This document shows, one piece after another, positions 1,973 to 27,790 of a stretch of DNA of 35,272 bases. Each line of letters begins with the position of its first letter. Within the stretch, counting starts at the first letter, position 1. Source of the stretch: Psammoneis japonica. Taxonomy: Eukaryota. The notes under the pieces are model-generated. The model did no database searches, was not told the DNA's origin, and worked only from the letters and a program-made list of their open reading frames with translations. The position numbers were made by a program, and so were the translations under genes. Location: positions 310,001 to 345,272 of the forward strand of contig QPGO01000082.1 of the NCBI GenBank assembly GCA_008632985.1, read 5' to 3'.

Positions 1973-2686
1973 TTGGTGAGAAAAATGAAGTGGCGAAGCG
2001 CGAGTGACTCAGCCTTCGAGTCCCACGAAATCCGGTCGTGCCTGCGCAGTTTTCGCCACCCATGCTCGGGCAGAAAAGGTGGTGGTTGAAATGGCGTACT
2101 TGAAGGCTGTGTTCATTTGCAAAGGAGCTGAAAGCAGACGATTGGTTTTAGATTGCTCCAGAGATATGCCTGTTCTGAAAAATGCGCTGAGGTGGTTTGA
2201 TCTTGACAACCAAAAAGAGAGCTTTTGGAGACAAGCTTTTGCACGCTGAAGTAATTGAATGCAGAGCTCTTCGTATTATCCCGCTAGGAACAACACTCTC
2301 GAAAATGATTGATGCTTCTCTGTGCTTCTCGGGTGCCAGTATGGTATGCTCTTCTCTCTTCTCTTTTGGTACAATGGGGTCTAACTTCTAACTCTAGAGT
2401 AGTAGTCTAACTCACAGTGGCAAGGATCAGGACTTCGAGGACGCCCTATTTCGTGAATTCAATATTATATAAAATACATATCCAGATTCAACGGATGTCA
2501 TATTGATTAGTATCGTAAAAATAGACGAAGAGCTGGTATATCAATACACACTTCTTTATCATCTTTGAGCTATGGCGTATATCAGAATATAGCAGTATTC
2601 TCAATAAAATTATGCAAACACTTAGAACGAATAAAATATTGGTGTTTTCACATCTCCAATGATAACCACAAAAAGGAACTCCTACC

Positions 2687-3757
2687 ATGGCGCCCACCGA
2701 GTCCAACAAGACCGACCCTCTCTTCCCAGATGTGGCACCTCCACCAGTAATGGTGCACGTTGTTGCACCGGCAACTTTACCTGCTGGATATACCTTTGAC
2801 GCGCAAGTCGGCGATGACCCAGACAGAACCTTTACAGTCGAAGTGGTACGTGACTACGTGACTGAGAAGAAAGAATAATACGGGGCATCACCAAGCTTTG
2901 GAGGGGATAATCGATGGCCGTTTATTTGATGTGGACATATATGTTTTTTTCCCAAGAGCTTTATTTGTGATCATGTATTCAATATGGTCATATGTGAGTC
3001 CCTGGAAAACGCTCATATTCTTCGTTTGTTCTCTTCGCTCGTGACAGCCCCCGGAGGGTGTGAATGAAGGCGATTTTTTTCTTGCTCCGCTCCCAGAAAA
3101 CTACGAAGGACCTCGTCTGAATGCTCCCACTGGTCGGTGGAAAGATGGTCTCTTTGGCTGTTGCAATCTTGGTTGCTGTCACGCGCATCTTTGGTGTGCC
3201 ATCTTTTTCCCACAGAGTACGTGTGACCGTCATTTCTTCTGAGAAGTGTACTGTAGACGCTTGTTGTGAAGCACTGAAGATGATTTGCTAACTTTTTTTC
3301 TTCTTATTTTTTTCTAGTTCTTATGGCAAACGTCATGACAAGGATGAACCTCACTTGGTTGGGTGAACCGGGTCCATTGGTGTCGACTCGAAACACGTTC
3401 AAAATCGTCTTGACCCTATTCATTTGCTACATCATTTACTCGTTAACCTTGAACATTATAGCGGGACAGTACGCGTTTGACAGCGTCCCCGGCTATGTTG
3501 TTTCTCTCAAAATTCTTGGCTCGCTTTCCTTTTCACTCTGGGCCTTGTATTCTCTTTGCAAGACACGCGAAAATGTCCGTTCCAAGTATTCCATTCCAGA
3601 AGAAAAGTGTCTTGGCTGTGAGGATTGTTGCTGCGCTTTTTGGTGTACTTGCTGCACGGTTGCGCAACTTGCACGCCACACGGGGGAATACGAAACCTAC
3701 CCGGCGTCGTGCTGCACCGAGACGGGACTTCCCAAGGGCACGCCGCATTTGGTGTAA
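2687..3757 (+). CDS. PLAC8-family Cys-rich membrane protein; 3 exons (2687-2845, 3048-3216, 3318-3757)
   Basis: GTACGT donors at 2846 and 3217 and AG acceptors ending at 3047 and 3317 join in frame. Motifs are 'GRWKDGLFGCC', 'RENVRSKYSIP' and 'EDCCCAFWCTCCTVAQLARH'. Confidence 0.88.
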
Positions 3758-3923
3758 TAGCGGTACTTACGATCTAGAGCGATCCGAGTAACGGACAGCG
3801 AGAGTCAACCAGGGTCGTTGCCTGTAAAGGAGCAATGGCATAACACGTCTCACGCCAATTCATACATGACTACTAAGATACATACAATCATTACTTGCTT
3901 ACTGATTATTTGTGCTGCACTTT

Positions 3924-4972
3924 CTACTCTTCGTATCCAAAAGTCTGTTTGAACTCAGCCTTCATTTCCTGTTCCTCTCGGCCTAACTCATCCTCCAACA
4001 TGGCCTCCTCTTCTTGAGCTTTTGTTTGGACGCAACCCGCAACGCCTTGGCATGCCGTCCTTGCCGTTTCGAAACATCTTGATACTCCAAATGCAACCTC
4101 CCAATCGTTTCGCCAAAGAGATTTGTGGATTGGTTCTTGGTTTTGCTCTTGGCGGCGACCACTGCCTTGGGTTGTTTGAGAGAAGCACTGTACAATTCTG
4201 TGGATGCAAGCTGAGTGCGTCGGACACAAAAGTCCATGTCGGGTCCACAGGGAATCAAAAGAGGCAGAGGCGGGGTCTTGCCCGTTGCGGACGGGTTGGG
4301 ATTCTTTTTGAGCTTGCAAAAATACGTGCGTTGGTGATAGAGAACTCGGTCTTGATGCTCGACTCCCGTTATTACAATGGCATGATCAAATCCAGAAGCA
4401 ACAATTTTGGAGACGGGATCGCCGCGGTACAAATCCAAGAGCATATTCTGCAGCTTCTTTCCCTCTTGATTATCCCATACATCACCAACAAACAAAACAA
4501 GAGGTTTGCTACCAATTCGCTTCTTGGGTACAGATCCACCATAATCCGCAAGACTCTTGTATCTCAAAACACCCAGCTCCATCATGTCGAGTATTTGTCT
4601 ATCAAAGGTTCTGCCCAATACCAAATTGTTGGGTCGTTTCTTGTTGTGACTCGCCATGACAAACAGAGCGCAATCATTTTTGGTGGTGAGAAACTCGAGC
4701 GAATGCTGTCCATCATCTGTAAAGGGAACAATTTCATTCTTTTTCGAAAGCAGTTTGGCATGGGGCGCTTGAATGGCCCGTAAGTCTTTTAAAATTGTAC
4801 CCATGGCTTGAGAACAACGAATGCCTTTTAGCAAAAGTGTGGACTTTGCTGGCTCGACCAGTTGAGACTCTGTTGACTTCAAATACCGTTGGACACGAGC
4901 CTTGGGATTCTTTGCGCTCCCGGACAAGACCTTGGCCTTGGAGGCTTTGGCTTGTTGCGATGTTGGTGCCAT
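3924..4972 (-). CDS. RPF2: Ribosome production factor 2 (Brix domain); one frameshift near 4020-4025 before the acidic C-terminus
   Basis: Motifs 'KNDCALFVMASHNKKRPNNLVLGRTFDRQILDMMELG', 'GPDMDFCVRR' and 'FGETIGRLH'. Adding one A in the A-run gives ...SKQKAQEEEAMLEDEL...YEE*. Confidence 0.92.
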
Positions 4973-5347
4973 GGTCGATGTTCTGAAACTACTTTTAGAG
5001 AGTAACTAACATGAGCGTCGGTTTCTGTTTTCTGTCGGCGGTCGGCGGCAACTTTTGCGTGGTCCCGGGCGATGGAATCTTTGTTGGATGGAATTTTTTG
5101 GTTTCAAATTTTTGAGCCTGGCCTTACTGCGCGGGGGCGCGCGATACCCGCGATAGCGAGAGAGAACATTTTGAAGTACATCCGACTTTCCATGATCAAC
5201 AATCCGATGATGATTCAAACGCACGCCACAAAAAAAAGGCCGCTGTTCTATTTGACGATGATGCATTGTGAAGTGATTGTTATTTGAGAAACAACATAAC
5301 AACAGAATAGTAAGAAAAGAGATCAGGTGCTTTTCATAGTATCAGAA

Positions 5348-8215
5348 ATGGGTGAAAATTCCAACGAAAATGACGTGGGAGAAGCTGTGGAATCAAACCG
5401 AAAAGTTGGTGGGTCTCGCGGCCGTGGCGGTGGCAAGAAGAAAAAGTCAACGGCGCAAGCCCACGGCAATGACGACAGAAGATCAAAACAGAAACCCAAT
5501 CCAAGCCACCCCAAGAAAAAGAAGCCAAAAGGCAATCAAGTTGATAATCAAGGAAAGGGCGAATCGAGTCACGCTACTAGATCCTCCCAAGCGCAAAGAA
5601 ATCTGCTGGAAAAGGAGCTCACAAGTCCTCGAACAAGCGTAAAAACAAAGAGAAGAAGAATGATTCGACAAACAAAAATTCGGAACCGTCGCTTCCATTT
5701 CCGCCTTATTCAAAGTTACAAGACTGTTGGAGCGATATGCGCCAAAGATCCCAACCTCGTCCGGGGAAAATCGCATGCTTTCAGCCCAACGGGAAAGGAG
5801 CATGGCCTTTGTCACGTGCGATCGAGGGAGTCTCGCCAGGGATGTTCTGTTGGAAAATAGAATGGATCAAAATCGGGCTCTAGACGGAGATATTGTCTTT
5901 GTTGAGCTCTTGGAGGAAGAGCAAACAGAAGTTCAAAGCAAGGACAAAAGTGGCCAGGGAGAAGAGTCGATAGACGATCTCTCCAAGGCCTTTTCGTCAA
6001 GGGTATCGTTGAAGAACGGGGAAGAAGCTGAAAAGCCTGCAAGATGGCGAGATGACGCCATACAATGTCGACTATGGAATCCATTGGTGAATGTACGCAA
6101 GAAGGCTTTGTCCTCCACGCAGACGCCGTCGTTGCGTTCGGATCAATTGCAGCAGCAGAGAAAAGGCAAGGTTGTGTACGTCATGTCATCCTCGGTTACA
6201 CTTAGTAATCAATCCTCTGAATTGAATCCTAGTGATGAAAGCTATCGTGCACGGGCTCCACGAAGATCTATTGTGGGGACGCTCAAGAAAGCAAGTCGCG
6301 GCGGCTACCGCTTTGTGCCAAACAACAAGGCATTACCCGAGTTTTTCTGCAAGGGCCATATCCGACACGGCGACGGCAAGTCGGACAACAGTAATGTAGC
6401 TCTTTACAAGGGAGAATATGTCCAGGGAAGTTGGAAAGAAGGTGATTATTTCCCCCCATGCGAACGTGTTCTGTCCTTGGGTACATCGTGCAATGTGGAA
6501 GACGAAACATTGGCACTCTTGGAGGAGAACGGAGTTAACCATGGAGATTTTTCTGCTCTTGTCTTTGAAGACGTAAACCGGGCCGTGGATTCAGGCTTGA
6601 CGGTTCTGTCACGCAAGGAACAAGCCGAGGACAATCTCGGATGGCAGCCGACGCCAGACATGTACAAGGGACGAAGGGACTACAGGAAGCAACGCATCTT
6701 TACGATTGATCCCACGACGGCAAAGGATTTGGACGATGCCCTGCATATCACGCCCTTGTCTAATGGACAAGTTGAGATTGGGGTCCACATTGCAGATGTC
6801 TCTCATTTTGTGCAGCCCGATTCGGCCGTTGACGAGGAAGCACGGCGTCGTGGTACGACTGTGTATTTGGTAGACCGAACAGTACCGATGCTTCCTCGGC
6901 CACTCTGTGAGGTGGCCTGTAGTTTGAATGAAAATGTCGAGCGACTGGCATTTTCTTGTGTCTGGACCATGAATAAGGACGGAACTATGCCAGCGAATGG
7001 AGATATTTGGTATGGAAAGACCGTAATCAAGTCTTGTGCAAGGTTGGACTACGCCACGGCGCAGAACATTATCGACACAAGGTTGCTACAGGCGAAGCAT
7101 GGCACCAGGTGAATGATGAGTTGTGGCCGAAAAGCCGACGTCCCACAAAAGGATGCGGTCACACGATTGATCAAGTCGCGGCAGACGTCCGCCTCATGAA
7201 TGTCGTAGCCAAGGCGCGGAGAAAGCTTCGCTTTGAAAATGGTGCATTGGCTTTGAACGGGATAAAGCTGCTTTCCAGTTAGAGGAGGATGGCGAAACGC
7301 CGATGCTATGTGCACCATATCCAATCCGAGACTCAAATCGACTTATCGAGGAATACATGCTTCTTGCCAATTTTTGGTTGCGCAGCGTTTGATTTCTCAC
7401 ACCGGAGGACTCGCTCTTCTGAGACAGCATTCACCGCCTCTTCCGATGGCATGGAAAGTGTCGTCGAAGTCGCAATGGAAGGTATGGGCTTCAAAATCGA
7501 TGCTTCGTCATCTCAAGCCCTGCAAAAGTCTCTAAGTCGGTTAGGACGAGAATGCCAAGACGAGTTGGTTCTGCAATGCGTCACAGCCATGTTGATGACT
7601 CCCATGAAGGAGGCTCATACATTGCGGCCGGAGAAGTCGCCGAAGAAGGTTGGCGACATTTCGCTCTGAATATTCCATACTACACGCACTTTTCCTCCCA
7701 ATCCGTCGATATGCTGATATTGTGGTCCACCGTCTCTTCAGGTGTCCATCGAAGGCGAACAAGAAGTGGAATCCTTTCCAATGTCTCAGAAAGAGATCCA
7801 TAGCATTTGCAATCATTGCAACGACAAGAAAACGGCTTCAAGAAAAGCACAGGACCGAAGCGATCGTGTGTTTTTGGCTTTGTATTTGCGGCGCAACCCA
7901 CTCAAGGGACAAAAGGCTGTAGTCCTCTCCATTGGACAGAAGACTTTCACAGTCTTCGTCCCGTCGTTGGGACTTTCTGCTCTCGTACATCTAGAGGACC
8001 ACAAGGACAATTTCAAATTTGAAAGTTACACGACGTCCCGAGATCAGCGAGGCATACGAATGGAACCGAACAACAAACCGAGAAAGGACGGAGGAGGAAG
8101 GCGCAAGATGGACATCAGAGTGTTTTCCAAACTCTCTGTTTCATGCACCTGCAAAGAGAAGCCACCCGTTGACGTCAGAGTAAGGGTAGAAGGATTTTGG
8201 ACGGAGGCTGAGTAA
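5348..8215 (+). CDS. DIS3L2: DIS3-like exonuclease 2 (RNB/RNase II family 3'-5' exoribonuclease); fragmented by several frameshifts
   Basis: CSD motif 'NRALDGDIVFVEL', catalytic 'IFTIDPTTAKDLDDALHI', 'GVHIADVS', 'TTVYLVDRTVPMLPRPLCE', 'LIEEYMLLAN' and 'HFALNIPYYTHFS..PIRRYADIVVHR'. The N-terminus is Lys-rich and low complexity, with no PIN domain. Confidence 0.9.
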
Positions 8216-18130: not shown

Positions 18131-19281
18131 CTATATTTCTGCTTTCTGAGCATAAAAGATTGATGATCTGTCTTCCAGTAAACTCAGCATTGATTCCTGA
18201 TACCAGGAACAAACCCAAATCGACTGAAGAATCTGTGATACGGCATGTTTTCTTCTCTTTCCGATCTGTACTGATTCAGTAGCTCTTCGCCAGCCTCGAG
18301 CCGACGTTTTGCCTTCACCTCTACAGTTCCGTCGCTCTTTCGCATGGCATGACTTACGTTGGGTTCATCACAGTGTTGCAGCATATCAAGCATCGGTACA
18401 AGTTTTTCATCGTCACCCTCATCCTGAAACGATCTGGTTAGAAGTGATACAAAGGCACCTTTGACCGCTTCTGGCAATCCTTCAACAGTCTCTGTAACTT
18501 GTGGAACTTTTGTTTCCCACGGCCAACTAAAGCCTTCCTCTTTCTCTTCCGTATCTTTCTCGCGAGCAGCAATAAGTGAAGGTCCGACAATACCATTGAG
18601 AACCTTGATGGCAAGATCAACCTGTCGAAAGAGGAAGGCAAGCAATAACGCGTCAATCGAAGTGAACACGCAAAAATCACTGTTCGGTTCAAATGGGGCT
18701 CCACCTTACCTCGTCGCGAAGATCTACAGACTCCCTATAACATAAACTCCCCTTCAAGTATTTTTCCACATCTTCGTCAGACCAAAAGAGAACGTGCTCC
18801 TGGTTGTTAATTCCTCGTTCCCATGGTAAAGTTGCAAAGTATGGTCCAAAACGACAACCCGAGTCATCGCCCTCCTGCAGAATCAATACTCTTTGGCCAT
18901 GTAACCCGCCATCACAACCGTGTTACCGCCAGGGCCTGCTCGCTTGATCAGATTGCCAAACGCATCTCCACATTTTGGGTCTTCCATTGCGTCCTTCAAT
19001 GTCAAACAAGCTTGACGTGGCACAGTAAAGAGCAATTCTCCTTCTTCAACTTGTTCGTTGACAAATGCGCCAAACCCTCCACCCAAAGGCGATGGCTTGA
19101 TTTCAATTTTGTTGCTAAGGTCTGATCCACTAGCTCGCAGCCATTCCAAAAGATCTTCGTATCGGTTTGCTGATGGAGATTCAACACTTGGTAGCGTCGC
19201 CGAGAAACCAAGCCCCGTTGGCAACACGGCAAGCATCACCAACACGACGATCGTCGTTGAGACCAGCTTTGAAAACTTCAT
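18131..19281 (-). CDS. SET-domain protein lysine methyltransferase (Rubisco LSMT/SETD3-like), probably plastid-targeted; intron 18622-18709, frameshifts near 18885 and 18198
   Basis: Motifs 'LLEWL..SG', 'GGFGAFV...VEEGELLFTVP', 'FGPYFATLP', 'LVPMLDMLQH', 'AGEELLNQY' and 'FGFVP'. Signal peptide ends 'GLG-F'. The frameshift-corrected C-terminus is ...FYAQKAEI* (stop 18131-18133); the uncorrected stop is at 18184. Confidence 0.85.
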
Positions 19282-19563
19282 CCGTTCGATATCTTCAATG
19301 CCACACACGAAAAATCACAAAGACTGGTCGCAAACCAACGAATGGCATCGTCTCGAGAGTTCAAGGTGGATTGGTTTACGTCGAAGCAAAGAAGTTTTGC
19401 GCTCCACGTGGCCGGCGCATGCGCATTGGCGGGAAGTTTTGCAGCGCAGGACCCCCTGACTCTAGCTCTAGAGTACGATGCAACAGACGCAAAATATATG
19501 GTAAAAGAATGAAGCAAGAAGTAAAATAGGCTAAGCACTCTCAACATCTCTCGCTAGGCCTAG

Positions 19564-22418
19564 TTACTTTGAGACTGACGTTGAAGGCAGTTTCTGGGAG
19601 GTTCTTGTCACCTCAAGGATAGCTCGAATATACATCATGTCGCGTATAGCCGCGAACGACTCTGGCGTAAATTCCTTGTTTGTATTTCGAATATGTTGCC
19701 GCATCGTCCAGTTTGGACTGGTGGTGGCATAGACTGTTGGAAAGGCACCTCCTGTAGCTGTCGAAAAAAAGCCAGTAATTGTTTCCAGCAGCTTTTCGAG
19801 CTGAATCATATGGTGTCGAAGTTGATGTAGCTCGTCGCTTGTCCATGGTTTTAGATACTCACAAGCTTGCACAATTTCTTCATCGGTCGGTCTACGCTGA
19901 ACCGATTGCAGCAGGTTACCAGGGAGCTTCCGATGATCCTGAACCGATTTCTGAAGCCTCTCCATTAAGAATGCTACACTTGTTTCTCGTTCTTCAAGAA
20001 GTTTTTCTATCGGAAAACTCGAAATTCCCTGCTGGAGCCGGTCAAGAAGTTTTGAATATTTGCGCGACTTGTTCTTGACCCACCTTTTCCTGGTAGTTTC
20101 GGATTCGAAAGAATGGCACCAGTGGCAGTTGTTGGGATCACTCAAAATTGACGTGAGAGCTGCGTCAATGGTCGAAGAAAGATCGTAATTCAGTGACAAG
20201 GAAAGGTCGGACGACAGTTCCAGCGCCAAAGCCTCGAACCTATTAGTGCTGGATACAGACTTTGAATGCAGCAGTGGGCGACTCGAAACTTGATCGATAA
20301 CGAGTAATCTGCGAAGTTCACCTCGGAAACTGAAGCGATACAGAAAAGGTCTTCCGAAATTATTGAAAGTTATCGTCATTGACCATAATCCCCAAGCTCT
20401 CATTGCCGCAGGAGTCTTGTGATTTCCAGCTAGTGATATCTGTCCCACGCATTTGGCTTCGTCGAGTTTGGCGTAAAAGTTATCTGCCACATCAATGTCG
20501 ATATTGAACACAACTGATTGACAAAGAAGTGCAATGGTCATATTCTGCGCGCCAAACATAGCCTTTATTATCATGCATAGTTGTGATAGAGCTTCGAGGA
20601 GGACCTGGAATCGACAGGTCATGAACTCCTTGTCATTTCGGTTTACTCTTGCGATGGAGGAGTCAACCACCCGCATTGCGTCATACACACGTGTGATCTC
20701 AAGTGCCAACAAGCAAGTCTCCACCAATTGGATTCGCAGCTTGTCAAACGCTTCTCCGCGAAACCGTGTAGATGGTAGATGCGAGAGAGTCGCGAGGTCG
20801 ACTGCTCGAATTTGGCGGAAATCGCTTAGCGCTGACAAGATTTTTCTTGATGTATCCTTGTTACTGAAAATCGCATAATGGAAAGCGACTTCCGTGAGCC
20901 TCGCAACGTCACTGAACGTGTCGAACATGAACCACTTTGTTTGGTTGCTGATAATCAGAAGTGATAACTGATTCTGTGGCGTCGCTGACAAGGCCTGGTG
21001 TAGTAGGCTTAGGAACTCCAAGACATCATCAAGGTTTATTTCTGAAATTTGGTTCGGATATGCAACACCTGCAAAGATACCTGCCCACCTTTTCCAACCA
21101 GCGGAATTGATAAATCGATAGGCAGGTACCAAGGCGTCAACATGGGTGCAAATACTTAAATAGAGATCACTGCTTACTCTCCCACATTGTGTAGTAAACG
21201 GGGTAGAAAATGCTGCCGTGAAATCGACCAAATCACGGTTTTCTCTTATGAAGGATTCGAGGCAACTGTTCAAGCGTGTCGCAGTTTCATAGTCAGCTTC
21301 ATCAAAGGAAATGAGCATTTTCCTCACAAGGACGTCGACGACTTGCACAAAAGACAATATTTGCGTTCGAGATGCAGATGTACTTTGGAGAGAGAGAGCA
21401 ATATAGCTGCCCTTGTACCCTTTGTGATGGACATAACAAACTCGAAGGCGTCGATAACCTCTTCTGCTAGCTCTCGTACATCATCATGTGAACAGTCGGG
21501 CGATGATGCGTCCTGAACTTGCACCAAGTTGGACATTAGATTTAGTGTTGCAGGACTGGAGCCACGTGCCACCATAGATGCATGGCAATATCGCAGATGA
21601 AGCTTTAATATTTCATTGGCGTACAAACCAATGATTCTGTTTTGAAGATTCAACGCAAAGTCTCGTGTTTCGGGACGGCGGTCAGAATCGCTTTCCAGCA
21701 GAGTCACCAAAAGTTGGAATGCCTCTTTGATTGACTCGCGCTGCTTTTGCGAATTGAAGGGACAGACGGAAAGCGCAAACTCGGTGAGAGCGACAGTTCT
21801 GTAAAATAGAACGTCACCGTTGAACTTCCAGTCGTCGGCAGAGTTTCCAAAATCGTGCACATTCTTCACGAAGGACGTTGAGTTCATCACGATCTCATAG
21901 TCTCCATTTGCTGTCAGTGTTTGAATGCTTTGCAGTAGCTCGGCTCTTTCTGTCTCTCTTTGAAGCTTGTCGGAAGAGCTCTGCAGGGTGAGCTCTTCGA
22001 ACTGTGCTCGGAACATCTGAGCCATCTGGATCTGGCGCCGTTCGTTGTCAGTGTCTGCTTTGGTTGGACGCTTACGGTGCGCAAGAGCATCAATTTCTTT
22101 TGATCTCGTACTCGACGAGGCTGCTTTTCGAGCACAACCGCCATCTTCAATCTCGACAGCGTTCTCTTCAGTGAGTAAAGATACTGTATTCGCTGTTGGA
22201 ACTTCGTCCTGATGATGCAATCCTGCCTGTCGAGTCACAAGGGATGCATACTGCGGGGAAATGACACCGCCATGATGAGCGAGAGGGATGCAGCGTCTGC
22301 CTTTTTTCGTGAAGATGTGATGGCTTCCACTGATCCTGTTTAATTTCCAACCATCATCCTCAAGCGATTTTTTCAGCTGATACCAACGTTTCGGCATGGC
22401 CTCAACGCGGTTACTCAT
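19564..22418 (-). CDS. ~950-aa protein with an N-terminal HicA-type toxin (dsRBD-fold mRNA interferase) domain and a large uncharacterised alpha-helical region; one frameshift near 21357
   Basis: N-terminus 'LKKSLEDDGWKLNRISGSHHIFTKKGRRCIPLAHHGGVISPQYASLVTRQAG' matches the HicA pattern L..GW...R..GSH..F.+.G....P.H. The two long ORFs (21324-22493 and 19564-21357) overlap and join on adding one T (AAATAT[T]TGTCT). Confidence 0.75.
22221..22397 (-). other. HicA_toxin-like domain (GSH catalytic His codon at 22320-22322)
   Basis: About 59-aa alpha-beta-beta-beta-alpha pattern with conserved GW, R, GSH and a downstream His, ending in 'QAG' as is typical of HicA. Confidence 0.8.
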
Positions 22419-22807
22419 GATACTGCTTTCGTTCCCCAACAGCAGTTGCCAGATCACTACCCAACGTCGGAAGTCGCAAGTAAGTCCAGACAATAAAATA
22501 GAAATCAGAGAGAGTGTATGTTCGCATGAAAACCTGAAACTTCTCTAGTAGAGCGTGGAGGGCTACTACTGGAGTACCGGTAGAGAGGGGGAGGTGTCAT
22601 TGCGAATGGGGTCATGAGCACTTCTACACGGTATGCGAGAAGTGCGCAACTCAGGCCCAACGTTGCGGTGCGGAACGCTATCCTCGCTCAACTTGGTGAG
22701 TAGGGTGCGGCGAAGTTTGTGCCGCGTCACAGAATCGATGCTAGTGCTGTTTCGAATCATTCTCGAGGACGCCAAGCAAGCGCCCGGCTCTCGAGACATC
22801 TCTAAAG

Positions 22808-26463: not shown

Positions 26464-27790
26464 TCATTCTTGAACCGCCGCTTCCGATGATTCAATCTGG
26501 AGCCCTTCCAACGTTGCAATGACTAGTGTCTTTTCGTCGCGAAACTGTGTATCGGCGGATGCTCGTTCCTCGTGAAGGGTCTCCAAGTACCGACAGAGCT
26601 TGACCTTGTTGTCCACCAATATCTTGACAACATCCGGCGGCTTGTTTGGATTTGCAACAAAAATCTTGAAAACATGAAAGGCATCCAGACTAATATGAGG
26701 ACTGGGGTTGCGAAGTAGCTTCATTACCAGAATGAGATTTGACTTGGAGGCAATGTAACGAATCATGACTTGGTAGTTGGATCGAGTCAAGAGGACCGTC
26801 GACAGGATTTGAAGAGCCATGCGTCGAGTCATGTAATTTGACTGCTCGGACGATAACAGCTTCAAGTTGAATCGATCCTCCCAAAGAGCTTGGTAATCTC
26901 TCAGAAGGAACTCTGCCGTTATCTCGGCCATTTCATTCTGTGTTGCTTCGCTGCCGTCGCTACCCGTAAGGATGAATTTGAGCGTCTCTGTCGCATCTGT
27001 AGCGACATCAAAATTTGGCGAGAACACGAAATCGTCAAGAAACGGAAAGACATATCGCTCAACGCTGTCTGTTGTTGATACCATGTGTCTGTACAAGTTG
27101 ACATGTCTCAGAGTAGATCGAAGCATTGATCCACAGTGAAGCGCAACATCAGGAGCCGCAGAGCCGCACTCGTGTCCACGAATGATTGGACTTATAATCT
27201 CGTCGTATCGGTTCTCAACATACAGGCTAAAACTTTCCATAGAGGGCTTGTAAATAGCCGAGTCTTCTCCGGCCAAACCGCACACTAACAAATAGTTGAA
27301 AATCGAGACAACATCTTTTCGGCTTTCAAACGGCAATTCAGATAATGTACGAGTAGTCGGGCATAAATGTCTGCATTTCTTCAGAATCCGTCAAAACTCG
27401 CACAGTCGTTGAAACAACCGACGGATTCTTGATTCGACTAGATCATCACGAGACGAGGAGCGACGTTCCTCGTACAAGAGAAATCTGAGGCGAGATAAAC
27501 GCGCTGCGAGAAGCTCTGTAGCTTCCTCGTCATTCTTGTTGTCGTCTTTGCTCACCGGGGCGTCACTTTTAGATCATCCACAGTTTAGATTCTTTCTCTG
27601 CCTTATCTTCCGAAATGCTGCTTTCTTTGAATCGGATATGGCGGCCAAGGTCAACATTCATCGTATCCAGAAGCAACGGTACGTCTGTGCAGGAATCAAT
27701 CCTAGAGCTAGCGTCCCCTCTCGCAAAAGGAAAGAGCTCCCCAGCCAACCATTCAAAAGGGGTGGCCACATGTGATGTCGGCGTTGACAT
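26464..27790 (-). CDS. Mo25/CAB39-like scaffold protein; frameshifts near 27575 and 27360
   Basis: Motifs 'LPFESRKDVVSIFNYLL', 'ALHCGSMLR', 'PNFDVATDA', 'NYMTRRMALQILSTVLLTRSNYQVMIRY', 'DAFHVFKIFVANPNKP' and 'QFRDEK'. Confidence 0.9.

Follow-up and report, generated by a model that had tools for sequence, protein, structure and literature searches.

A HicA toxin-type domain fused to an orphan helical body in a family of large eukaryotic proteins

What keeps a free-standing mRNA interferase under control in a eukaryotic cell? This question is raised by a gene on the minus strand (22418..19564) of a 35,272-nucleotide (nt) stretch of the Psammoneis japonica genome (GenBank assembly GCA_008632985.1, contig QPGO01000082.1, positions 310,001 to 345,272; hereafter the window, with its first letter as position 1). 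The gene encodes a HicA toxin-type domain at the head of a large protein, and its family, found both in a dinoflagellate parasite and in algae that dominate ecologically, keeps the toxin active site without an antitoxin. In the openly available literature, HicA is treated as a prokaryotic (and phage) toxin. An initial annotation, made from the letters of the DNA alone, had described a HicA domain joined to a large helical protein in a eukaryotic nuclear genome. By sequence comparison, we place the locus in a conserved family of eukaryotic proteins of ~950 amino acids (aa), present in diatoms and more distantly in Amoebophrya, with a bacterial-type HicA domain at the N-terminus.

HicA domain and gene layout

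The N-terminal domain is a HicA domain by profile, by fold (read on the model of a homologue) and by motif. The 364-aa product of the first open reading frame (ORF) matched the HicA_toxin domain family (Pfam PF07927, COG1724) with an E-value of 3.1e-8 and 34 bits against a cut-off of 27, over profile positions 1–58 of 58 and residues 12–67. Its best matches among the PDB sequences were HicA chains, 4c26_A (E 0.0034) and 6g26_E (E 0.0037), followed more weakly by 1whz_A and 5yrz_B. The ISGSHH of the window was aligned on VTGSAH of 4c26, a His24Ala mutant toxin, with GSH lying on Gly22-Ser-His24. A complete HicA domain that keeps the GSH histidine had been called in the initial annotation, and this full-length match above the cut-off, together with the alignment to solved toxins, confirms it. 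According to the accessible text of a 2024 review, Gly22 and His24 of the B. pseudomallei HicA are needed for toxicity or RNase activity, and the corresponding His is likewise required in the toxins of Y. pestis, S. pneumoniae and E. coli (PMC11594946).

The fold was read on an AlphaFold2 (AF2) model of the homologue P0001 (961 aa), which is 70% identical to the window in the domain. The model, built with the family alignment as input, reached a predicted local distance difference test (pLDDT) score of 83 and a predicted template modelling (pTM) score of 0.77. It contained an alpha-beta-beta-beta-alpha domain at residues 6–60, with helices at 6–17 and 51–60 and strands at 21–26, 29–34 and 37–43. 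When compared with 48,161 PDB representatives by VIA-align, residues 5–63 superposed on 5yrz_D with Z 8.6 and a root-mean-square deviation of 2.1 Å over 57 aligned residues, and also on 6g26_E (Z 8.2), 1whz_A (Z 7.8) and 4p78_D (Z 7.4), with 57–62 residues aligned overall. The active site is highly conserved. In an 87-row family alignment, in which 70–72 rows cover the active-site columns, R24, G27, S28, H29 and H45 of P0001 were kept in 97, 95, 93, 94 and 97% of the covering rows, respectively, and the second His (His49 of the window) was also invariant in an alignment with 14 short prokaryote-type HicAs. The window was 70, 75 and 68% identical to P0001, P0002 and P0004 in the HicA domain, 10–16% in the linker that follows it, and 30–48% in three segments of the body. 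These values indicate that the nuclease domain is the most constrained part of the protein.

The gene is read in two frames. The first ORF (22493..21324, minus strand) encodes 389 aa from a TTG or 364 aa from the first ATG at 22418, and the second (21357..19564, minus strand; 597 aa) abuts it. From stop to stop, the first frame is open over 22544..21327 and the second over 21480..19567, with an overlap of ~150 nt, and the second is displaced by −1 relative to the first, as if one base were missing. In local blastp comparisons, residues 5–340 of ORF1 aligned with P0001 residues 1–344 at 44% identity, and the second frame aligned with P0001 residues 358–948 at 43.7% identity (E 6e-160). Because both frames are collinear with this uninterrupted homologue, they form one HicA-fusion gene of ~955 codons with a single −1 break, and the two ORFs that had initially been joined through a frameshift are not separate genes. 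Between the two blastp segments, 47 nt (21398..21352) stand against 13 residues of P0001, from which it follows that one base is missing. An intron was considered as the cause of the frame change and rejected: 253 GT..AG pairs of length 3n+2 could be listed, and the collinear segments leave only 47 nt between them. The gene therefore contains no intron, in agreement with the initial annotation. The start of P0001 corresponds to window residue 5, just before MPKRW. The features of the gene are as follows.

19564..22418, minus strand: whole gene, a HicA-domain fusion in two frames with one −1 break and no intron (ORFs, frames and collinear blastp to the 961-aa P0001)
22395..22418, minus strand: two candidate ATG starts, M1 at 22418 and M8 at 22397 (translation and alignment)
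22218..22385, minus strand: HicA toxin-type RNase domain, residues 12–67 (Pfam PF07927, PDB HicA chains and P0001 model)
22320..22328, minus strand: Gly31-Ser32-His33, putative catalytic motif (alignment to 4c26_A and 6g26_E)
22272..22274, minus strand: His49 (His45 of P0001), the second conserved His, in the motif P-V/L-A-x-H-G-G (family alignment)
22062..22226, minus strand: poorly conserved and probably disordered linker, residues ~65–119 (P0001 model with pLDDT <50 at 66–121; 10% identity to P0001)
21906..22058, minus strand: predicted long single helix, residues ~121–171 (mapped from helix 123–173 of the P0001 model)
21399..21905, minus strand: first part of the conserved helical body, in the ORF1 frame (blastp to P0001 up to residue 344; by hhalign, common also to the Amoebophrya protein)
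21352..21398, minus strand: interval that holds the −1 frame break, with an A3 run at ~21360 as one possible site (gap between the blastp segments)
21324..21326, minus strand: stop codon of the ORF1 frame, ending the out-of-frame tail after the break (ORF reading)
19567..21351, minus strand: main helical body, in the second frame, 595 aa (blastp to P0001 358–948; AF2 model)
19564..19566, minus strand: stop codon of the gene (ORF reading)

A conserved family with an orphan helical body

We searched a library of 1.84 billion protein cluster representatives with the 364-aa frame using HMMER. The scan returned 74 relatives at E ≤ 1e-3, including 28 at E ≤ 1e-10 and 4 at E ≤ 1e-30. The best relatives were long proteins aligned from their first residues: P0001 (961 aa), P0002 (1004 aa), P0004 (953 aa) and P0006 (961 aa). 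Full-length, uninterrupted members measured 945–1004 aa and were collinear with both frames of the window. When 35 relatives were scanned against Pfam, PF07927 was found at E ≤ 1e-3 in 30, at or above the 27-bit cut-off in 25; the other five were N-terminally truncated or degenerate, and no Pfam family other than HicA was found in any of the 35. A metagenome contig from JGI (L081, 3444 bp) carried one uninterrupted 954-aa ORF of the P0004 type. Since the HicA domain and the body are joined in many independent sequences, the fusion is not an assembly chimera, and the architecture that had been claimed for this eukaryotic nuclear gene proves to be conserved.

Named members are found among eukaryotes. 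P0003 is the MMETSP record 'Transcript_17947 ... type:complete', and P0010 is a EukProt entry from the diatom Attheya sp. CCMP212 (Bacillariophyta). P0060 (CAD7935473.1, 1676 aa) comes from Amoebophrya sp. A120, a syndinian alveolate (Syndiniales) that parasitizes dinoflagellates. The family alignment matched P0060 in hhalign with a probability of 99.5% and an E-value of 3e-22 over the HicA domain and ~340 residues of the body, which indicates that the shared unit is more than the toxin domain. The ~1260 residues of P0060 that lie beyond the shared part gave no alignment with the family profile. Several 953-aa members had been named automatically by IMG as 'predicted RNA binding protein YcfA (HicA-like mRNA interferase family)'. 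Word-indexed protein searches with ORF1 or ORF2 found no relatives, and the same kind of search with the family alignment found only five already known members among the matches listed. The second frame had no match among metagenome contigs, and ORF1 had no relative among viral contigs. On another metagenome contig (L082), a stretch of ~3 kb downstream of a P0004-type gene (2275–5223) held no ORF longer than 111 aa, which fits eukaryotic rather than bacterial gene density.

The part of the protein that follows the HicA domain was modelled as helical throughout. In the P0001 model, a low-confidence, disordered stretch at 61–121 was followed by a 50-residue helix at 123–173 and then by helices only, up to residue 956, apart from one 3-residue strand. 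The second frame of the window (595 aa, 35 alignment rows) was likewise predicted as all helices, with pLDDT 82.6 and pTM 0.85. These models suggest a variable, probably disordered linker of ~55 residues, then the long helix, and then an all-helical body of ~780 residues. The ~800 aa of helical sequence that had been left without a family initially thus retain that description, while the charged, coiled-coil-like linker has to be split, by the P0001 model, into a disordered part and the 50-residue helix. The second frame matched no Pfam, NCBIfam or PADLOC family, its NCBIfam rows lying far below threshold. The family profile retrieved only weak HicA rows from the PDB sequences and left the body unmatched. 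In the ESM Atlas, there was no usable match for the second frame of the window; the body of P0001 gave leads below 0.9 to the TPR-like families SPO22/ZIP4, TTC7_N and INT10, helical repeat-like at most. As modelled, the ~840-residue remainder would be an orphan alpha-helical, solenoid-like domain without a match to any known fold or family. Several members carry a linker motif immediately ahead of the long helix, (R/K)-P-(I/V)-P-(A/G)-S-K...L-(S/T) (P0001 ~112–125; window ~22100–22060), which could be a docking, modification or cleavage site.

We also investigated the origin of the domain. Among prokaryotic HicAs, collected from one genome per species by a search seeded on exact peptide matches (ISGSHHIF, for example) and biased accordingly in what it recovers, the nearest were 38–51% identical across the domain, and the best 22 rows were all from Planctomycetota (Phycisphaerae, Pirellulales and others). 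They include a Phycisphaerae sequence from a Planctomycetota metagenome-assembled genome (L001; 51% identity over 53 aa), and P0047 is from a Phycisphaerales bacterium. The short HicAs of Planctomycetota have the RISGSHHIFTK core and the PVH motif in common with the window; in the domain tree (105 rows, 63 columns) they form a clade of their own (40 rows, SH-aLRT 98). The window fell in a separate clade (SH-aLRT 95) made up of 29 fused-type sequences. Another 14 rows of the fused type grouped apart from it (SH-aLRT 97); in this clade P0026, P0027, P0029, P0036, P0056, P0058 and their relatives, proteins of up to 1101 aa, carry the signature SRG..RA...LPVAVHGGKLRRDV and Ala/Arg-rich sequences.

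An ancient acquisition from bacteria is the most likely source of the HicA domain. Its GC content (0.488) and GC content at third codon positions (GC3, 0.500) equal those of the neighbouring genes, and because the composition is fully host-like, the acquisition would not lie in the recent past of this genome. Against a bacterial source stands the tree itself, which has an unresolved backbone and places the eukaryotic clades inside no bacterial group; the origin is inferred from the known range of the HicA family, which Pfam annotates as a bacterial toxin. The horizontal acquisition proposed initially is supported in outline only, by the range of the family and by the prokaryotic kin, and the phylogeny against bacterial HicAs supports the clade of the window without placing it. 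No donor can be named.

Control and function of a HicA domain without HicB

Prokaryotic HicAs, as described in the accessible parts of the review, are single-domain proteins of 50–100 aa encoded beside HicB, and in HicAB complexes the catalytic residues are buried under HicB and the His is masked (PMC11594946). The domain studied here shares with these toxins (4c26/6g26 of B. pseudomallei, 5yrz of S. pneumoniae, 4p78 of Y. pestis HicA3 and 1whz of T. thermophilus) the family, the fold as seen in the P0001 model, the Gly-x-His motif and the second His. In contrast to them, it forms the N-terminus of a ~955-aa eukaryotic nuclear protein with no HicB nearby and no HicB-like domain. The HicB family was absent from all 99 stop-to-stop frames of at least 45 aa between 17000 and 25000 on both strands, where the sole match was DUF6816 of the neighbouring gene; over this interval the lack of a HicB partner noted initially is borne out. 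Beyond HicA, the P0001 model showed no domain with beta strands that might represent a fused HicB. No Pfam match to HicB, HTH, RHH or SMC was found in the window protein or its relatives, and fold searches retrieved only generic helical proteins, with remote kinship still possible. Since both the small stand-alone size and an adjacent or fused HicB partner are lacking, the locus is not a HicAB type II toxin-antitoxin system.

Fused HicAs are known from prokaryotes. In the available text of a 2024 survey (Gerdes, mBio; PMC10865869), classes 11–13 join HicA to HicB, with class 13 reaching at most 340–440 aa and having a mostly helical N-terminal region, and in class 14 HicA stands C-terminal of SMC, a long coiled-coil partner. 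The present protein resembles these classes in that HicA lies inside a single polypeptide, and here, too, one has to ask what keeps a fused toxin in check. It differs from them in that HicA is N-terminal, the partner is a helical body of ~840 residues without a Pfam family, and the hosts are eukaryotes. CapRel(SJ46), as outlined in the accessible passages of the same survey, combines in one chain an N-terminal toxin and a C-terminal region that restrains the toxin and senses a viral protein (PMC10865869). It works as the initial annotation proposed for the HicA-fusion protein, but its toxin has an unrelated fold and it is bacterial.

We consider it reasonably probable, judging from the sequence, that the protein combines in one chain a HicA endoribonuclease and the orphan helical scaffold to which it is tethered, and which would direct it to targets or restrain it. 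In such a protein the HicA domain would still be a ribosome-independent RNase using His33. Because no antitoxin is there to neutralise the domain, the helical body may govern it in cis, either as a scaffold that would deliver the nuclease to particular RNAs or ribonucleoproteins (RNPs), or as a restraint that would be released by a signal. A conditional RNase triggered by stress or infection is slightly favoured over a housekeeping one: the body diverges fast, a few members have lost the His and the copy in the window may be broken, all of which suits a dispensable gene of the conflict type slightly better than a core factor for RNA processing. A role in defence, as the initial annotation had suggested, is plausible. 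Its most specific form would be a single-chain, abortive-infection-like antiviral RNase of diatoms and syndinian parasites, in which the body would hold HicA inactive and free it on a viral or stress signal, by conformational change or cleavage of the linker, to shut down host and viral RNA; we regard this form as unlikely.

Several findings weigh against a tethered, active RNase with a role in defence. The catalytic His was lost in a few members (GSYH in P0005, GSLH in P0037), which indicates that catalysis is not universal in the family. The copy in the window is frame-broken, and the contigs of two sequencing runs carry no indel there, so that it may not function in this organism. Transcription in the family is hinted at only by the MMETSP 'Transcript_...' record and short contigs. 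The body had no fold match above the background of helical proteins: its best VIA-align scores were Z 10.3 (P0001) and Z 9.6 (window frame) against a background of ~Z 13, with designed repeat proteins, Nic96 and similar proteins as its rows. A weak row to the helical part of EfAvs5 (9jap_A, Z 7.0) lay inside this background. Foldseek gave no match at E ≤ 1e-3 in the PDB (both models) or in BFVD. Neither frame matched a PADLOC defence family, nor an NTPase or other sensor or signalling family in Pfam, NCBIfam or PADLOC.

Some of these findings would suit a housekeeping factor for RNA processing or decay, in which HicA has been domesticated as the catalytic module of a constitutive scaffold with no part in conflict or cell death. 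PIN domains are comparable catalytic modules in eukaryotic decay factors. The recurrence of the ~950-aa architecture in several diatom-derived sequences and, distantly, in Amoebophrya would be expected of such a factor, as would the strong purifying selection on the HicA domain, the position among ordinary housekeeping genes and the lack of a defence-family match. However, the body diverges fast (22–48% identity among members), the linker is unconserved, some members lack the catalytic His and the named members come from SAR lineages only; a frame-broken copy, if the break is real, would also be unexpected for an essential factor. We give this explanation clearly less than an even chance, as a tentative alternative. 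The HicA domain could instead be a non-catalytic RNA-binding module by now, and the protein an RNA-binding scaffold. The HicA fold is dsRBD-like, both in the accessible text of the review (PMC11594946) and in the P0001 model, and a toxin RNase without an antitoxin would endanger the cell. Yet Gly-Ser-His and the second His are kept in 93–97% of 72 rows across deep divergence, as expected for a selected active site, though these residues could serve RNA binding as well; such a scaffold seems quite improbable to us. Bacterial contamination or a chimeric assembly, with a bacterial hicA beside a eukaryotic ORF, might be suspected since HicA is otherwise prokaryotic and IMG gives long proteins the YcfA name quoted above. 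It is effectively refuted, its probability being negligible: dozens of contigs and transcripts, independent of one another, carry this fusion, the GC and GC3 of the domain are those of the host, the HicA domain and body share one open frame of 364 codons, the flanking genes are eukaryotic, one of them with a spliceosomal intron, and one contig from each of two runs spans the whole locus.

The single-chain, tethered RNase that we favour would make the family a new candidate among the nucleases that may act in diatom RNA decay or in responses to stress or viruses. Its orphan domain of ~840 residues, modelled with good confidence, offers an object for structural study. If true, the antiviral version would give eukaryotes a parallel to CapRel and other fused toxin-antitoxin sensors, made with a bacterial toxin domain but lacking its antitoxin. 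No report of a eukaryotic HicA protein was found in the openly searchable full-text literature, outside of which subscription journals lie. In their accessible passages, the 2024 survey of 14 HicA genetic contexts (PMC10865869) and the 2024 review (PMC11594946) describe no eukaryotic form; the passages of the former that contain 'eukaryot' concern viperins only. The eukaryotic family is previously undescribed; the HicA domain itself was already known and had been annotated automatically by IMG.

The frame break and the neighbouring genes

We further examined whether the −1 break is a lesion of the gene or an artefact of the assembly. Logan contigs were available for two DNA runs that share one sample, with word depths of 61 and 33; they showed no gaps against the window across the locus, and the break region (21287–21508) was covered by the contigs of both runs, again with no gaps. 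These comparisons rest on one contig per run over the locus at a likeness of at least 90%, from a sample that may be the assembly's own source, and contigs hide minority alleles. The absence of gaps argues that the missing base is missing in the reads. The contigs differed from the window by one and three substitutions: both runs have 19693 A>G, and a single run adds 21816 A>G and 21855 G>C, a pattern that suggests two haplotypes in the sample. The copy in the window keeps 71 of the 83 columns that are at least 75% conserved, as compared with 71/81 in P0001 and 70/81 in P0006, which are intact. Thus it shows no decay apart from the frame break, which leaves two readings: a pseudogene that is very recent or allelic, or a gene with a single-base consensus error. 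No slippery site of the X XXY YYZ type, as used in programmed frameshifting, was seen in the break interval when it was read by eye.

Similar breaks occur in the neighbouring genes, and every frame break found in the window amounts to one missing base. In an RNB/Dis3-like gene (plus strand, ~5300–8215), the RNB profile was tiled in order over −1-shifted frames (profile positions 78–134, 142–170, 172–210, 284–306 and 307–319). Between 6900 and 7950, the order of frames by start modulo 3 was 0, 2, 1, 0, 2, 1, 0, 2, which amounts to up to seven −1 breaks in ~800 nt and none in the opposite direction; by eye, motifs such as LIEEYMLLANF|LVAQRLIS straddle a T5 run. Either this gene has decayed into a pseudogene, with strikingly one-sided indels, or its consensus is locally poor. 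The SET gene (18184–19308, minus strand) has one −1 break at ~18888 (18880–18895), between AGYMAKEY and LILQEGDDSG, where GAGTAT is followed by TGATTCTG and, by eye, there is no room for an intron. Breaks that all go in one direction are typical of deletion-biased consensus errors. The uniform −1 direction suggests either such errors or a deletion-biased decay of the region, and the similar breaks of the neighbours weigh against a simple pseudogene verdict for the HicA copy.

A consensus or base-calling artefact, with the gene intact and functional in this organism, would account for the otherwise undecayed sequence (the 71 of 83 conserved columns), for the 595 open codons downstream and for the uniform loss of one base at the breaks of the RNB tiling and the SET gene. 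Against it stand the independently built contigs of the two runs, with no gaps over 21287–21508, though they come from the same sample and possibly from the source of the assembly; in addition, ORFs of 1268 aa and 626 aa elsewhere in the window are intact, so that the error rate would need to be very uneven. Roughly, we give a real lesion, recent or allelic, a little over an even chance and an artefact somewhat under one, and some other cause appears improbable.

The other genes of the window are of ordinary eukaryotic types. The Mo25 gene (26467–27700, minus strand) carries profile positions 79–331 in one ORF (26467–27390), and positions 1–78 lay in no upstream frame of at least 20 aa, for which an intron, divergence or frame breaks could account. 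The ORFs of the window carry Brix, RNB, IQ, DENN/uDENN, ArfGap, PPR, DUF6816, SET, Mo25, Fuseless and armadillo-repeat domains, and the GC content is even, at 0.44–0.52 per kb. The SET gene, which is adjacent downstream of the HicA-fusion gene, contains a canonical GTAAGG...ACAG intron of ~88 nt (~18710–18620). These conserved domains and the intron agree with the eukaryotic nuclear setting that the initial annotation had assigned to the locus.

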